64,000 bases of DNA from Pseudomonadota bacterium (GTDB lineage: Archaea > Thermoplasmatota > SW-10-69-26 > JACQPN01 > JAJPHT01). Under the pieces are notes generated by a model. That model was given only the letters and a program-made list of their open reading frames with translations, did not search any database and was not told the origin of the DNA. The stretch is taken from contig JAJPHT010000029.1 of the NCBI GenBank assembly GCA_021325135.1, positions 64,001-128,000 on the forward strand. The letters run 5' to 3'. Below are positions 53,647 to 61,206 of this stretch, piece after piece; positions within the stretch are counted from its first letter, which is position 1; every line of letters starts with the position of its first letter. Both the position numbers and the translations under genes were made by a program.

Positions 53647-55011
53647 ATGCGCGCCCTGCTCCTTCTCGTGATCCTCCTGGCCTCCGGCTGCGTCGCGCCT
53701 GCGGTCCACCCGGAGGAGAGGCCCGCGGGCTTCGCCACCCTCGCGGGGGTCGCAGGGCCGGTGAGCCTGGGGCCGCAAGCGGGGCACGCCATGGAGCCCT
53801 CCCTGGCGATGCGCGGCGACGCCATCGTGATCGCGGCGCACACGGAGATGCCTGGCACGGAGCCCGGCCAGGCGCGCGTGTTCGCCATCGTCGTCCACCG
53901 CTCCACCGACGGGGGCGCCACCTGGTCCTCCGCGCCCCTTCCCCGCGACGTGACCTCCCCCTTCGACCCGCTGGGCCGCATGCGCTACAGCGGCGACTCG
54001 GTCCTCGCCTTCGCCCCCTCGGGCGCGCTCTACCTGGCGGGCGTCGCGCTGGACGGCGTGGGCGACGCCGCGGTCCTGGGCCAGAACACCGACTTCACCG
54101 TCTTCGTCACGCGCTCCGACGACCAGGGCGCGACGTGGTCGCCCGCCGTGTTCCACGTCCGCGGCGCGGGCCCCGCCCTCGCGCTGGCCCAGGACAAGCC
54201 GTGGCTCAGCGTCGACCCCGAGGGCTCGCTGCGCCTGGTGTGGACCGAGTTCGTGCAGTCGCTCACCCTCATCCAGTACGCTCGCTCGGACGACGGCGGG
54301 GCCACGTGGAGCGCGCCGCGCACGCTGGCCCTCAACTCGGCCCAGGAGATGAACCAGGTCACCGGCGCCACCCTCGCGACGCCCGGCGGCGGGCGCGTCT
54401 ACCTCTCCTACACCGACATCCGCAACGAGCCGTGGCCCCCCACCGCGCCCGTCGCGAGCCGGCAGCTGGCCTTCTGGAGCGCAGACGGCGGCGCCACCTT
54501 CCAGGGGCCCCTCGTGGTGGGCCCCTCGGTCTTCCCGCGCTTCGGGCGCGTCGTCGCGGACCCGCGCGATCCCCTGCACGCCGCGGTGCTGGCCTCCGAC
54601 GACGCGGCCCAGCCCCGCGTGTACCTCCGCGAGACGCGCGACGGCGGCGCCTCGTGGGGCCCGCGCCTGGACCTCGCGCCGCAGCGCGCGGGCGCGCAGC
54701 AGCTTCCCACCGGCTGGTTCGGCCCCGACGGGAGGCTCCACGTCGCGTACTACGACGCGGGCTGGCCCGGCGGCGAGCGCGTCGTGCTGGACACGCTGGA
54801 GGGCGGCGCCCTCGTCGCGGAGCAGCCCGCGCCCGGCCCGTCCATCGCGCCCGGGCCGTACCGCCGCGAATACTTCGGCCTCGACGGAGAGGGCTCCCGC
54901 GTCTGGGCCGCCTGGGTCGCGGGCGACGGCGGCACGGGCGACTCCGTGGCGGTGCTCACCGGGACCGATGGCACGGGGACCTACGTCGCGGCGGCGCCGT
55001 TCGACGTCTGA
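53647..55011 (+). CDS. Lipoprotein, BNR/Asp-box sialidase-like propeller
   Basis: Lipobox ASGC; STDGGATW, SDDQGATW, SDDGGATW, QDKPW. Confidence 0.85.
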   Translation: MRALLLLVILLASGCVAPAVHPEERPAGFATLAGVAGPVSLGPQAGHAMEPSLAMRGDAIVIAAHTEMPGTEPGQARVFAIVVHRSTDGGATWSSAPLPRDVTSPFDPLGRMRYSGDSVLAFAPSGALYLAGVALDGVGDAAVLGQNTDFTVFVTRSDDQGATWSPAVFHVRGAGPALALAQDKPWLSVDPEGSLRLVWTEFVQSLTLIQYARSDDGGATWSAPRTLALNSAQEMNQVTGATLATPGGGRVYLSYTDIRNEPWPPTAPVASRQLAFWSADGGATFQGPLVVGPSVFPRFGRVVADPRDPLHAAVLASDDAAQPRVYLRETRDGGASWGPRLDLAPQRAGAQQLPTGWFGPDGRLHVAYYDAGWPGGERVVLDTLEGGALVAEQPAPGPSIAPGPYRREYFGLDGEGSRVWAAWVAGDGGTGDSVAVLTGTDGTGTYVAAAPFDV

Positions 55012-55967
55012 TCGCAAGCGCAGGCCGCCGCGCGGCGCATGCGGCGGGCGCGCGGGATCGCGGAGGCGAGGGCGAGGACCAGCGCGGCAGCCAGGGCGGC
55101 CGTCCGCATGCGCGGGTCCCACGGCGCCGCGCGCACGCCCTGCACCACGAGCGCGAGCCCGAGGCCCAGGAGCGTCTTCACCGTCGCCTTCATCCAGCGG
55201 CGGCGCGCGAGGCCCAGGCTGGAGACGGCCTGCGCGCCCGCGGCGAGAAGGCCCAGCCCCAGCGCGGCGGCCCACGGCAGGGGTGCCATCAAAAGCGCCG
55301 CCATGGCGAGGAGGAAGACGGGGAACGTCGTGAAGCACCCCACGCAGAGCCGCAGGCCATTGATCCGGTAGACGTCCTTGCGGTACGCCTCGGTGTCGGG
55401 GTGGTGCGCGAAGACCTGGGGCAGCGCCAGGGGTGCGGCCTTGGAGGCCAAGGGGAGGAGGGCCAGCGCGGCGCACCCGCAGCCGCCGCACCCTCCGCAA
55501 CCCCCGCAGCCGCAGTCGCACGCGCCGCAGCTTCCGCAGCCGCACGGGTCGCCCCCGCCGCACGGGTGGCAGCAGGGGGAGCACGGGTCGCAGCACGAGG
55601 AGGGGCAGCAACACCCGCCCCCTCCGTTGTTGCACGTGCACGCGGGGCCGCTGCTGGCGGGGACGGGGCGCATGGCGGTGAAGAAGAGGATGAGGAGCAC
55701 CAGCAGCACGAGGACGCCCGACGCGTAGACCAGCGCGACGAGGAGCGTCGCCACGAGGGCGGTCTGCCCCGCGAGGACGGCCGCCACGGCGAGGTTCCCC
55801 TGCCGCTCGTGAAGGCCCAGGCCGAGGGCTGCCGCGCCGAAGACCAGGGAGAGGAAGAAGACCGCGGGGTCGGGGGTCACGAGGAAGCCCGCGAGGAAGC
55901 TCACCCACGCCAGCGCGCCCAGGACCAGGGCCGCGATGGCCTTCCCTGATGGAGCCTCCTCCGGCAC
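54981..55967 (-). CDS. Membrane protein with metallothionein-like Cys-rich segment and DUF2085-like C-terminal domain
   Basis: 21 Cys in about 56 aa; FAHHP...RLCVGC followed by TM helices. Confidence 0.65.
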   Translation of the reverse strand: MPEEAPSGKAIAALVLGALAWVSFLAGFLVTPDPAVFFLSLVFGAAALGLGLHERQGNLAVAAVLAGQTALVATLLVALVYASGVLVLLVLLILFFTAMRPVPASSGPACTCNNGGGGCCCPSSCCDPCSPCCHPCGGGDPCGCGSCGACDCGCGGCGGCGGCGCAALALLPLASKAAPLALPQVFAHHPDTEAYRKDVYRINGLRLCVGCFTTFPVFLLAMAALLMAPLPWAAALGLGLLAAGAQAVSSLGLARRRWMKATVKTLLGLGLALVVQGVRAAPWDPRMRTAALAAALVLALASAIPRARRMRRAAACACDQTSNGAAAT

Positions 55968-56045: not shown

Positions 56046-56987
56046 GTGTCCGCCATCGTCGCGACAAGCCTGCGCAAGTCCTACGGCGAGGTGCGCGCCG
56101 TGGAGGACGTCTCGCTGGACGTGGCGGAGGGGGAGATCTTCGGCCTCCTGGGCCCCAACGGCGCGGGCAAGACGACGACGGTCCGCATGCTGGCGACGCT
56201 GCTCCGCCCCGACGCGGGCGAGGTGCGCATCCTGGGCCTCGACCCCGCGCGCGACCGCGTCGCCGTGCGGCGGCTCATGGGCATCGCGCTCCAGGAGACG
56301 GGCCTCGACGACCTCGCCACGGGCCGCGAGCTGCTCACCCTCCACGCGCGCCTCTATGGCCTCCCCCGCGCGCGGGCCCGCGAGCGCGCCCAGGAGCTTC
56401 TCGCGCACTTCGGCCTGGAGGAGGCGGCGGACCGCCGCGTCGGGGAATATTCCGGCGGCATGCGGCGGCGCATCGACCTCGCCAGCGCGCTCGTCCACTC
56501 GCCCAAGGTCGTCTTCCTCGACGAGCCCACCGTGGGCCTGGACCCCGCCGCCCGGGCGCAGCTCTGGGGCGCGGTGCGGCGCCTCAACCGCGAGGAGGGC
56601 ACCACCATCCTGCTGACGACGCACTACATGGAGGAGGCCGAGCGCCTCGCGGGGCGGCTGGCCGTCATCGACCGCGGCCGCGTCGTCATGGAGGGCACCG
56701 CAGCGCAATTGAAGGCTCGCGTGGCGAAGCGCGTCGTCACGCTGGCCTTGGACGACGAGGAGGGGGACTTCCCTCGGGTGGCCCGCGCCCTCGCGGCGAT
56801 GCCCGGCGTCCTGCGCGCGCTCCCCACGCCCGAAGGCGTCGTCGTCCACGTGGGCGAAGGCGGCCCCCGCGCCGACGAGGTGCGCGCCGTGGCCGAGAAG
56901 GAGGCGCGCGTCGTGGGCGCCACCTCCAACGACCCCACGCTGGACGACCTCTTCCTCACCACCGGCCGAAAGGAGGGATCGCAATGA
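56046..56987 (+). CDS. ABC exporter ATP-binding subunit (DrrA-like)
   Basis: GPNGAGKTT, YSGGMRRR, LDEPTVGLDP, TTHYMEEA. Confidence 0.93.
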   Translation: MSAIVATSLRKSYGEVRAVEDVSLDVAEGEIFGLLGPNGAGKTTTVRMLATLLRPDAGEVRILGLDPARDRVAVRRLMGIALQETGLDDLATGRELLTLHARLYGLPRARARERAQELLAHFGLEEAADRRVGEYSGGMRRRIDLASALVHSPKVVFLDEPTVGLDPAARAQLWGAVRRLNREEGTTILLTTHYMEEAERLAGRLAVIDRGRVVMEGTAAQLKARVAKRVVTLALDDEEGDFPRVARALAAMPGVLRALPTPEGVVVHVGEGGPRADEVRAVAEKEARVVGATSNDPTLDDLFLTTGRKEGSQ

Positions 56988-57751
56988 GCTTCCTCACCGC
57001 GACCGACGAATTGCTTCGCAAGACGCTGCGCCAGTTCCCTCGCGTGCCCCCTGATATCGTCCAAGCCCTCGCGATCCCGCTCTTCCTCTTCGCGCTCTTC
57101 TCGCTCCAGATGGCGGCCGTCTCGCGCCTGCCCGGGTTCCCGACGGAGAATTACGCGCAGTTCCTCCTGCCGCAGATCATCGTCTTCACGGCGTTCACCA
57201 GCGCGAACGGCGCGGGGTACGGCCTGGTGCTGGAGGCCAAGAGCGGGTATCTCGACAAGCTGCGCGCGATGCCCATCCCGAGGGCGAGCATCGTGCTGGG
57301 GCGCCTCCTCGCGGTGGGCCTGCGCGCCATGGCGCAGGCGCTTCTCGTGCTCGCCGTGGCGTTCCCCTTCGGCATCCGCGTCGCGGGCGGCGTCCTCGGC
57401 GTCGTGGGCATCCTGCTCCTCGCCGCGTGCGTGGCCATCGCGTGGGCGGGCATCATGTCCATGCTGGGCCTCCTCACGCGAAGCCCCGAGGCGGTGGAGG
57501 CCTCGACCGTGCTCTTCATCCCGCTCACGTACCTCACCACCGGCGCCATGCCCCTGGCGCTCATGAGCCCCGCCGTGCAGGGCGTCGTGCGCGCGAACCC
57601 CGTGACCTACGTCGTGGAGGGCATCCGCGCGTTCAGCCTTGACGCGGGCCTTTCCGTGGTGCACCTGGAGGCCTTCGCGTCGGGGCTCGCCATGGCGCTC
57701 GTGGGCGTCGCGCTCGCGACGTGGGCGATGCGGCGGCTCGACACGCGCTGA
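56984..57751 (+). CDS. ABC-2 exporter permease (DrrB-like)
   Basis: ATGA overlap; six TM; GYLDKLRAMP, NPVTYVVEGIR. Confidence 0.9.
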   Translation: MSFLTATDELLRKTLRQFPRVPPDIVQALAIPLFLFALFSLQMAAVSRLPGFPTENYAQFLLPQIIVFTAFTSANGAGYGLVLEAKSGYLDKLRAMPIPRASIVLGRLLAVGLRAMAQALLVLAVAFPFGIRVAGGVLGVVGILLLAACVAIAWAGIMSMLGLLTRSPEAVEASTVLFIPLTYLTTGAMPLALMSPAVQGVVRANPVTYVVEGIRAFSLDAGLSVVHLEAFASGLAMALVGVALATWAMRRLDTR

Positions 57752-57881
57752 GCATGGGGACGGCGGAGCGTGGACTGTTCCTCCGCGCGGGCCCGCGGCC
57801 TCCGAGGGGAAACATATCACACGCGTGCAGAATCATTAAACCAGTTAGCGCCATTGGGTGCCGCGCCTGCGAGATGATATC

Positions 57882-58640
57882 ATGCGCGCCGACGACCTCC
57901 TCGTTCTCGACTACGCCGGCTTTTCCCGCCACACGGCCCTGTTCTACAAGAAGCTGGAGGCGGCGTCGTTCCGGGAGCTCTTCGTCCGCGACCCGGCGGG
58001 CGTCCTCTTCGACTCCCTCTTCCCCGGCTACAAGAGCCCGACCCCTGGGAAGATCAACCAGGCCAACCGCATGCTCTTCTCCCTCCTGAGCAACCCGAAG
58101 TTCATGGACTGGAGCAAGGGCTTCCAGAAGAAGCTCGAAGAGACGGCCCAGCGCGCCGCGCCGCAGGAGAAGCCCGGCGAGGCCATCAAGCTCTACACGG
58201 TCCAGGTGGACCGCGCCAAGCTCTACCAGGAGATCCTGGAGGCGACGCGGAGCTTCGCCGACGTGGAGTTCTTCCACTCGGCGTTCATCGCCGACCCCGA
58301 CGACAACCCGTGCGGGACCGTCCCCCGCCCCATCCCTCTCCCCAACCCGCCTCAGCCCCCCGTCCCGTGGCCGGACATCTCGATCATGCCGCGCTTCGGA
58401 GGCAACGAGGACGTCGCCGTGGAGGTCGAGACCCTGATCTACGCCGTCGCGGTGGCGGCGGTGGCCGTCGTGGTCACCGTCGTGGCCGTCGCCGGCATGC
58501 CCGCGGTCGAGATCCTCTCGCGCCAGGACCTTGCCAAGGTCACCGGGATCGCCGCAGAGCACCTGCAGGCGCGCGCCCAAGGCCTGCGCGAGTCGGGCAA
58601 GCTGACGTCCCACGAGGCGATCCGCGGCCGCCTGATGTGA
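57882..58640 (+). CDS. Putative large RiPP precursor (NHLP-like leader, GG, Val/Ala-rich core, follower)
   Basis: FRELFVRDPAGVL; CGTVPRPIP Pro-rich linker; FGG-NEDVAVEVETLIYAVAVAAVAVVVTVVAVAG; 4 nt upstream of the radical SAM gene. Confidence 0.6.
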   Translation: MRADDLLVLDYAGFSRHTALFYKKLEAASFRELFVRDPAGVLFDSLFPGYKSPTPGKINQANRMLFSLLSNPKFMDWSKGFQKKLEETAQRAAPQEKPGEAIKLYTVQVDRAKLYQEILEATRSFADVEFFHSAFIADPDDNPCGTVPRPIPLPNPPQPPVPWPDISIMPRFGGNEDVAVEVETLIYAVAVAAVAVVVTVVAVAGMPAVEILSRQDLAKVTGIAAEHLQARAQGLRESGKLTSHEAIRGRLM

Positions 58641-58644
58641 GCCC

Positions 58645-59709
58645 ATGAGGATCTTCGATCCTCTTCCGGAGGGCCGGACGCTCTCGGTCATGCCGACCTT
58701 CCGATGCACCGCCGAGTGCGACCATTGCGGCACGTTGAGCAGCCCCCGGGAGAGCACCTGGCTCCCCCGGGACCTCATGCTGCGCGTCATCGGCGAGGCG
58801 GCGGACAACGGCTACAAGGTCGTGGTCTTCACCGGTGGCGAGCCCACGCTGGCGGGCGCGGACCTCCTGGAAGGCATCCGGCTCGCGAGGTCGCGTGGGC
58901 TCGTGGCGCGCATGGTGACCAACGGGCACTGGGCCGTCCACGACGCCGCGGCGGACCGGAAGATCGGCGAGCTCGTGGACGCCGGCCTCAACGAGATCAA
59001 CTTCAGCACCGGCGACCAGCACGCGCGCTTCGTCCCCATGGAGCGCGTGCTCCGGGGCGCAAGGGCCGCCGCGAAGGCGGGCCTCACCATCGCGATCATG
59101 GTGGAGACGGTCAACGAGCGCCGGATCACCAAGGAGACGGTGGAGAAGCACCCCGAGTTCCAGCGCCTCCTGGAGGAGCACCCCGACGCGCGGCTGAGGC
59201 TCCACGAGAGCCCCTGGATGCCGCTGATCCCCTCCAAGGTCTTCCGCTACCCCGAAGGCCTCGCCATCAACCGGGCGAACCTCGCGTGGCGCGCCGGGTG
59301 CGACAGCGTCCTGGGCACGACGACGCTCCAGGCCAACGGCAACCTGGGCGCGTGCTGCGGCATCGGGATGAAGAACGTCCCCGAGCTGAGCCTGGGGAAC
59401 GCCCGCGACGTGCCCCTCGCCGAGGCCGACGCCAAGGCGGGGGACGACTTCCTGAAGCGGTGGATCCGCGTCGAAGGTCCCGAGAAGATCCTCGACTGGG
59501 CCTCCCGCCACGACCCCTCCATCCAGTGGGAGGACATGTACGCCCACCGCTGCCAGGCGTGCATCCGCCTCTACACGGACCCCGCCGTGCGACGGGTGAT
59601 CCGCGAGAAGCACCAGGAGAAGATGGCGGACGTCGTGTTCGGCGAGTGGCTCCTCTTCAAGTTCCAGGGCGCGGACGACCCCGTCGTCGCCGCGCCCCCG
59701 GAGCCGTAG
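58645..59709 (+). CDS. Radical SAM enzyme, YydG/EpeE-like peptide epimerase
   Basis: RCTAECDHC..LSSP, FTGGE, TNGHW, HARFV, GC...GNLGACC, IRVEG, CQAC. Confidence 0.8.
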   Translation: MRIFDPLPEGRTLSVMPTFRCTAECDHCGTLSSPRESTWLPRDLMLRVIGEAADNGYKVVVFTGGEPTLAGADLLEGIRLARSRGLVARMVTNGHWAVHDAAADRKIGELVDAGLNEINFSTGDQHARFVPMERVLRGARAAAKAGLTIAIMVETVNERRITKETVEKHPEFQRLLEEHPDARLRLHESPWMPLIPSKVFRYPEGLAINRANLAWRAGCDSVLGTTTLQANGNLGACCGIGMKNVPELSLGNARDVPLAEADAKAGDDFLKRWIRVEGPEKILDWASRHDPSIQWEDMYAHRCQACIRLYTDPAVRRVIREKHQEKMADVVFGEWLLFKFQGADDPVVAAPPEP

Positions 59710-60761: not shown

Positions 60762-60840
60762 ACCCGTCCGCGCAGGCGCCCCCTTGCCGCCACCGAAGGT
60801 TGAAGCGCCACCCACGGCGTCCTGCCGCGGGCACACCCCC

Positions 60841-61206
60841 ATGCGCTCCACCACGATCCTTCTGGCCCTCTCCCTCGCCGCCACCTTCCTGGCCTTTGCC
60901 GCCCCCGCCGACGCCTGCGCGGGCACCGCGTGCATCCCCGGCTGCACGCAGGACCGCTGCCCCCCCGGCTGCGGCGACAACATCGGCTGCTGCCAGCCCG
61001 GCAGCAGCATCGTGGAATGCTTCGTCCCCCACTGCACGCAGACCTTCTGCATCGACCTCCCGCCCGTGCCCCCCTGCGTGCGCCCGGACTGCATCCCCAC
61101 CTGCTACGGCCCCCTGTGCATCAACGACTGCACCTACCTCCTGGGCTGCCCCCCGAACCTGTGGTGCAACAACCTCTACTGCTACACGCCCCCGCCCCTG
61201 GCGTGA
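60841..61206 (+). CDS. Small secreted extremely Cys-rich protein (18 Cys in 96 mature aa)
   Basis: Signal peptide ending ADA, then CAGTACIPGC... Confidence 0.8.
   Translation: MRSTTILLALSLAATFLAFAAPADACAGTACIPGCTQDRCPPGCGDNIGCCQPGSSIVECFVPHCTQTFCIDLPPVPPCVRPDCIPTCYGPLCINDCTYLLGCPPNLWCNNLYCYTPPPLA

Follow-up and report, generated by a model that had tools for sequence, protein, structure and literature searches.

The 64,000-nucleotide stretch of contig JAJPHT010000029.1 analysed here (the window; assembly GCA_021325135.1) carries, all on the + strand, a pair of ATP-binding cassette (ABC) transporter genes, a 252-aa open reading frame (ORF) for a partner protein, P0001, and, 4 nt further on, the gene of a radical S-adenosylmethionine (SAM) enzyme, P0002. 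An earlier note on this DNA had read the four genes as an archaeal cluster for a peptide that ribosomes synthesize and that is modified after translation (RiPP), and its coordinates are confirmed. The unit is, however, two genes (P0001 and P0002) and not four. P0001 would be the substrate of a self-contained, horizontally spread two-gene cassette of the RiPP type, in which P0002 probably epimerises residues of a variable insert in the partner, as EpeE does with its own substrate, a proposal based on the predicted fold of the enzyme and on its cysteines.

The likeness of P0002 to EpeE (also called YydG) was seen by profile, by PDB sequence and by fold. TIGR04078 (YydG) is its top NCBIfam match, at 58.6 bits over residues 12–138 only, and the same profile is matched by 115 of 115 aligned enzyme homologues (best E 1.4e-23); EpeE is also the best PDB sequence match. 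The predicted model, with a predicted local distance difference test score (pLDDT) of 93.6, has the EpeE fold of a radical SAM core and an extended twitch (T-SPASM) domain, and a Foldseek search with it placed EpeE in the top nine rows (TM 0.67–0.71, 16–18% identity). In a fold comparison the two enzymes matched over 305 residues with a Z of 26.9 and a root mean square deviation of 3.2, the next fold scoring 19.2 and TigE 14.8. The motifs from which the earlier note had drawn this likeness are all present and in order, namely RCxAxCDHC..SSP at residue 20, FTGGE at 62, NGxW at 93, HxxFV at 126, C219...G232...C237C238, IRxEG at 274 and CxxC at 303–306, and a check for grouping with non-peptide radical SAM families left the assignment standing, EpeE/YydG being the best match.

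The five cysteines outside the SAM motif (219, 237, 238, 303 and 306) are invariant in all 115 homologues. A single cluster could do with one fewer, and the extra one lies at the position of EpeE C223. C237 and C238 align with EpeE chain residues 247 and 248, which are C222 and C223 because chain residue 26 is Met1, and C238 is therefore the candidate hydrogen-atom donor. In EpeE, which epimerises Val and Ile, Cys223 is the proposed donor (PMC8326336, PMC13012085, PMC5682303). P0002 has no N-terminal extension for a RiPP recognition element (RRE). In build it resembles EpeE, yet it falls outside the YydG family.

The partner protein has no Pfam or NCBIfam match, and a profile search with it gathered 318 clusters at 50% identity, 208 of them at E ≤ 1e-10. 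Within this family residues 1–135 and 212–241 are conserved, while the length of the linker and the sequence of the insert vary. The predicted model follows the same division, with a pLDDT of ~90 in both flanks and below ~55 in the insert, and the flanks may pack into one domain. Fold searches with this model gave a best Z of 5.5, no Foldseek match at E ≤ 0.001 and an Atlas TM of ~0.3, which does not imply a novel fold. The insert holds a Val/Ala-rich segment at aa 178–204, and its composition (V34/A22/I11/L9/G2.5) differs from that of the membrane helices of the host (L24/A19/V16/G9). A few partners carry Tat-like signals and P0001 has none; most partners with polar repeats retain a hydrophobic stretch before the repeats.

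The description of P0001 as a proteusin-like precursor, with an NHLP-like leader, a GG cleavage site and a polytheonamide-like core, held in part. An NHLP-like stretch is present, and as a sequence likeness it is real but weak and spans ~50 residues: aa 2–49 align with a Frankia-peptide-like ORF at an hhalign probability of 86.5%, and positions 6–37 of TIGR04509 match the N-terminal region under the cut-off. No NHLP or Nif11 leader was matched by P0001 above the family cut-off, and the NHase alpha probability is 2%. Across 116 partners, TIGR04509 was found in 11 and TIGR03793 in two, as weak matches that lie under the cut-off where scores were seen. The Val/Ala-rich segment also stands, without the Asn-every-six ladder that is that of the polytheonamide D,L β-helix. 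The core is internal, unlike that of a proteusin, because ~45 residues that include a conserved helix follow it, and the proteusin layout is not supported. Nor is the cleavage site: conservation is lacking at the GG of residues 173–174, where 8% of homologues have G in the corresponding column, and a GG anywhere in the 25 aa that precede the core occurs in only 15 of 127 partners.

Genetically, the partner behaves like a RiPP precursor, being linked to its enzyme and having a conserved presumed recognition region and a variable core. Among 29 non-redundant loci, chosen for an enzyme score of 300 bits or more and for 700 bp or more of upstream sequence, a partner is adjacent or fused in 28, compared with just one of 59 lower-scoring radical SAM loci, so that the co-occurrence of precursor and enzyme, a check proposed in the earlier note, is borne out. 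Two proteins from two lineages, P0021 and P0100, are fusions of enzyme and partner with different junctions; the P0100 sequence recurs unchanged in two assemblies, and the cluster of P0021 contains a second member. Three loci (L012, L123 and L125) hold a pair of partner paralogues for a single enzyme, the inserts of the L123 pair being clearly different, and very different inserts accompany enzymes that are 55–65% identical. Distances between enzymes correlate with those between scaffolds (rho 0.67) and less with those between cores (0.25). A predicted complex of enzyme and partner gave a median of 0.43, with one control at 0.26, and is used here neither way. One close enzyme homologue (L032:6971-7918) has no detected partner gene nearby, and its C-terminus appears shortened.

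Several observations on both proteins weigh against EpeE-like epimerisation of an insert. The TIGR04078 score of P0002 is far under the curated cut-off of 300 bits, identity to EpeE is only ~17%, and the alignment segment with the CC pair is below significance and is not reported for the C223A chains. EpeE Asp210, which is mutated in PDB 8AI6, appears to fall on the nearly invariant Thr225 of P0002 when counted back from the CC pair, a possible difference in the active site; the auxiliary ligands of EpeE and the role of Asp210 are taken here as assumptions. On the side of the partner, 116 of 127 inserts are above 1.6 and so hydrophobic enough for a membrane span, and the P0001 insert is modelled as a low-confidence helix. 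No protease, exporter, immunity gene or cleavage motif is conserved across the loci. The correlation of scaffold with enzyme is soft evidence that co-transfer of adjacent genes alone could give, and a short core is a noisier measure of distance than a scaffold.

The low identity and the threonine at the presumed Asp210 place would also suit an enzyme that acts on the same substrate by other radical chemistry, forming a cross-link, a Val/Ile cyclopropane or a desaturated residue or cleaving the backbone, and radical SAM cyclopropyl synthases do act on Val and Ile (PMC10878394). We consider this unlikely. The fold match to TigE is far weaker than that to EpeE, and P0002 lacks the GYW motif that cyclopropyl synthases such as TigE and TvgB carry at auxiliary cluster I and that is described as theirs alone (PMC10878394). 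Thioethers are disfavoured by the absence of Cys from the window insert and by its presence near the insert in only 18 of 127 partners, and the combination of very different inserts with enzymes at that level of identity fits a chemistry of the backbone.

The hydrophobicity of the Val/Ala segment bears on another alternative, that the segment is transmembrane and the partner a membrane-anchored or scaffolding subunit of an enzyme whose target is, for example, a lipid, a small molecule or a phage component. Strict 1:1 adjacency and the fusions are also compatible with such a subunit, as are the want of a conserved protease or exporter and the variable, sometimes mobile contexts in which the cassettes lie. 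We nevertheless regard it as rather improbable given the paralogues, two to an enzyme in three loci and with clearly different inserts in one of them, the inserts that are extended by polar repeats or lack a hydrophobic stretch (L108), and an insert composition unlike that of membrane helices. PADLOC gave generic radical SAM matches to viperins only and none for the partner, and there was no phage match.

For epimerisation of the insert, then, the steps would be as follows. The N-terminal 135 residues and the C-terminal helix would form a scaffold that packs together and is recognised by the enzyme; through a tether rich in proline it would present the variable Val/Ala/Ile insert, which it would probably also keep soluble. 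SAM cleavage would be followed by abstraction of a Cα hydrogen in the insert, Cys238 would return a hydrogen on the opposite face, and an auxiliary cluster bound by C219, C237, C303 and C306 would reset the thiyl radical. Going by the fold and the cysteines, the product would contain D-Val, D-Ala or D-allo-Ile. If epimerisation does take place, we hold it an even question whether host proteases release the insert as a membrane-active peptide or whether it is left in the protein; the product may, in the former case, be released, exported and active on membranes.

The earlier note had made the ABC pair the exporter of the cluster. In a genome of the same genus that is 99% complete (G009) and lacks the cassette, an orthologue of the ABC ATPase is 80% identical, and orthologues of the permease are found there (77%) and in two further genomes, G007 (57%) and G006 (53%), the enzyme being found in none of the three. 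No permease homologue was found in 36 cassette loci, in which ATPase matches occur in two and are distant or partial; upstream DNA of at least 3 kb was available in 22 of the 29 loci. The pair is of the DrrAB type, and a peptidase domain is not listed among its family matches. Because orthologues occur without the cassette and the permease is missing from related loci, the ABC pair stands outside the system; judged by gene content, it is host background adjoining the insertion site and not a conserved part of the cassette. A four-gene archaeal hybrid of epipeptide and proteusin, cut at GG and with the ABC pair as exporter or protector, is accordingly very unlikely in our estimate, even though the genes are adjacent on the same strand, autoimmunity in B. 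subtilis involves an ABC pair of the epe locus (PMC13012085), and co-option of the pair after insertion is conceivable. Against it stand, besides the cassette-free orthologues and the 36 loci without a permease, the transporter type, the unconserved GG and the internal core.

The host is archaeal and probably belongs to the Thermoplasmatota, since the ABC pair is preceded at 3–7 kb by genes for TBP, SepF and ZPR1, and most of the closest TBPs with a name bear the label Thermoplasmatota or a broader euryarchaeal one. In G009 the ABC ATPase and permease are followed directly by the gene that follows the cassette in the window, at 77–80% identity. Among 21 genomes of the class the enzyme was detected in this one only (G000), and among 401 genomes of the phylum two others have enzyme matches, which are distant (100–129 bits vs 586). 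The host genome has no second partner copy that we could find. No donor can be named from the enzyme tree, which is star-like. The simplest reading of these comparisons is that the cassette was gained by transfer at this site. The family is, by its sequence distribution, mainly bacterial and the archaeal copy a cross-domain transfer and not an archaeal invention, contrary to the archaeal pathway first suggested. Named hosts include the Bacillus cereus group, Paenibacillus, Spirillospora, Roseiarcus, Eremiobacterota and Ignavibacteriae, and intact cassettes are present in cultured Streptomyces canus (on a plasmid) and Thermus aquaticus (pTA14).

A genome contamination estimate of 5.57% and the failure to find the cassette in the relatives searched could be taken to mean that it is an inactive passenger or an artefact of assembly or binning. 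This we judge highly improbable: both cassette frames are intact with all invariant residues present, the cassette has a GC content at third codon positions (GC3) of 0.96, equal to that of the neighbouring host genes, it sits between two genes that are adjacent in G009, and the 378-kb contig carries TBP.

Other differences from the matching locus of G009 were seen around the cassette. Two unnamed Cys-rich ORFs of 328 and 140 aa, at 54981-55967 (-) and 60784-61206 (+), are missing there, as is the BNR-repeat gene at 53647-55011, and the region has therefore seen several gains or losses. G009 has tandem duplicate TBP genes (L105:6744-7835) that are 100% and 90% identical to the single TBP of the window. 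In the Bacillus cereus group the cassette lies directly 3' of a Tad/Flp-type pilus gene cluster (L006/L007). The gap 5' of P0001 possibly holds a promoter of its own, to go by its sequence; its TATA-like hexamer is not among the enriched upstream motifs, promoter scans gave no informative signal, and the repeats look like chance matches.

Table 1. Genes and features of the cassette and of the ABC pair beside it, in window coordinates
Feature	Position	Strand	Basis
DrrA-type ABC-2 ATPase, 313 aa, GTG start	56046-56987	+	TIGR01188 322.9 bits, above cut-off
DrrB-type ABC-2 permease, 255 aa	56984-57751	+	family matches
Gap, 130 nt, 63% GC (lower), TATA-like A/T run ~45 nt 5' of ATG	57752-57881		
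P0001, partner and probable substrate protein, 252 aa	57882-58640	+	no Pfam or NCBIfam family
P0001 N-terminal helical scaffold, aa 1-135	57882-58286	+	conservation; pLDDT 88-97 over aa 11-140
P0001 Pro-rich linker, aa 139-175, of variable length, holding the non-conserved GG	58296-58406	+	low pLDDT
P0001 Val/Ala/Ile-rich insert, aa 176-205, proposed core, Cys-free	58407-58496	+	pLDDT < ~55
P0001 C-terminal follower helix, aa 212-241 (SRxDL ... LRxxGxL)	58515-58604	+	conservation; pLDDT 86-97
P0002, EpeE/YydG-like radical SAM enzyme, 354 aa	58645-59709	+	HMM, PDB sequence, fold
P0002 radical SAM CxxxCxxC motif (C21, C25, C28)	58705-58728	+	
P0002 auxiliary region, five invariant Cys (C219, C237, C238, C303, C306)	59299-59562	+	

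The closest known system is that of the epipeptides, epeXEPAB (yydFGHIJ) of B. subtilis with EpeE/YydG (TIGR04078; PDB 8AI1-8AI6). P0002 shares with EpeE the fold over 305 residues, one auxiliary cluster region and the CC pair at the position of Cys222/Cys223, and a Val/Ile-rich candidate target is common to the two systems. The epipeptide precursor EpeX is, however, a peptide of 49 aa, in contrast to a folded 252-aa partner with an internal insert; the EpeP protease has no counterpart beside the window cassette, the ABC pair is part of the epe cluster and not of this one, and epipeptides occur in Bacillota whereas the cassette is spread across many phyla. Proteusins (PoyA/PoyD, OspA/OspD) resemble the cassette in their large structured leader, weakly NHLP-like first helix and Val/Ala-rich core, and proteusin-like inserts with Asn at every sixth position lie beside some related enzymes; they differ in that the partner has no conserved GG, no NHLP match above the cut-off and a follower helix after the core. 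PoyD-type epimerases have the SAM cluster only and an RRE (PMC8326336), and P0002, with its EpeE fold and five auxiliary Cys for a second cluster, is not of that type. The cassette would work like the epipeptide system, yet tests of membership place it in neither the epipeptides nor the proteusins.

Two other systems are alike in part. In borosins (OphMA; SonM/SonA), which exist in fused and split forms, a helical-bundle leader and linker present the core to an enzyme that modifies the backbone (PMC9811515). The likeness is one of logic only: the borosin enzyme is a methyltransferase, no similarity of sequence or fold was detected, the comparison with the five-helix borosin binding domain bearing only on the families listed in the fold searches, and here the C-terminal helix would also hold the insert. 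The SdpC toxin precursor (TIGR04032) is of similar size, with a hydrophobic Val/Ala segment near its C-terminus. Weak TIGR04032 matches occur in nine of 116 partners, mostly over the hydrophobic segment (best E 2.4e-5; best 24.3 bits vs a cut-off of 99.2), and P0001 itself has none. A gene of the SdpI family adjoins the Thermus homologue, although SDP is matured by SdpAB and not by a radical SAM enzyme.

Most loci are bare two-gene cassettes, and genes of RiPP or immunity type, which speak for the proposed reading, are found in a minority. In L123 a RamC_N lanthipeptide synthetase domain is encoded directly after the second partner. Peptidase genes adjoin a minority of loci and none is conserved: CAAX-type proteases were found in L110, L125 and L016, and S8 or S15 peptidases in L009, L012 and L030. 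Of the clusters seen, the most complete belongs to a cultured host and lies on pTA14 of T. aquaticus (L115; NZ_CP010823.1, 2271-7270), with genes for a helix-turn-helix regulator, a 301-aa partner, an enzyme of 44.6% identity, SdpI, a methyltransferase and a serine hydrolase. Its partner has a Tat/lipoprotein-like N-terminus and an Asn-alternating insert, in which Asn recurs at each sixth position eight times running. Two ORFs upstream of distant enzymes of ~31% identity (L002:7225-7965 and L052:4047-6941) contain polytheonamide-like Val/Ala stretches in which Asn returns at the same spacing of six, nine and seven times respectively, and do not match the partner profile. Such spacing is what a D,L β-helix would lead one to expect. 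At L012:6819-12448 the enzyme is flanked by two partner copies with long Gly-Pro-Asp-Pro repeats, and three 2-oxoglutarate-Fe(II) oxygenase genes lie near; proline hydroxylation is possible at this locus.

ORFs with Val/Ala stretches or repeats also lie beside further distant enzymes. On a plasmid of the cultured haloarchaeon Halocatena salina (L118:4014-9447), a 177-aa ORF that ends in a Val/Ala stretch is accompanied by an enzyme of 30% identity that has the CC pair, by a membrane gene of DUF3784 and by a TPR protein. In L045-L049, L054 and L040, the proteins that precede distant enzymes have conserved flanks around long repeats, Pro/Ile-rich or Pro-Leu-Val, and may represent a second scaffold family. 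Plasmids of Lactococcus, B. cereus and Clostridium felsineum (L116, L117 and L119) carry ~30%-identical enzymes beside ORFs of 170–236 aa with Val/Ala stretches, with a C1 peptidase, ABC genes, DUF1648 and a CAAX protease among the neighbours, and the match of the C. felsineum enzyme to TIGR04078, at 88 bits, extends over almost its full length.

No description of the family was found in the literature, most subscription papers being outside the coverage of the search. In reviews, radical SAM peptide epimerases are described as being of a PoyD type or an EpeE type, the latter only with the short epipeptide of Bacillota as substrate. We put forward, as a tentative proposal that we do not yet favour over its negation, that the cassettes form a class, widespread and so far undescribed, in which many D-residues are introduced by an EpeE-type enzyme into a loop that a folded protein grips at its two ends; leader and follower would be a reusable clamp for hydrophobic, Asn-ladder or repeat inserts, and two genes would suffice. 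If such a class exists, its product could be a released D,L β-helical membrane peptide or a full-length D-amino-acid protein. With its more than 300 distinct partner clusters, it would bring large folded proteins from many phyla, including one from an archaeon, into the range of EpeE chemistry. If it is the scaffold that is recognised and inserts can be exchanged, as the sequences suggest, the cassette could be used as a tool of two genes to introduce D-residues into selected peptides.

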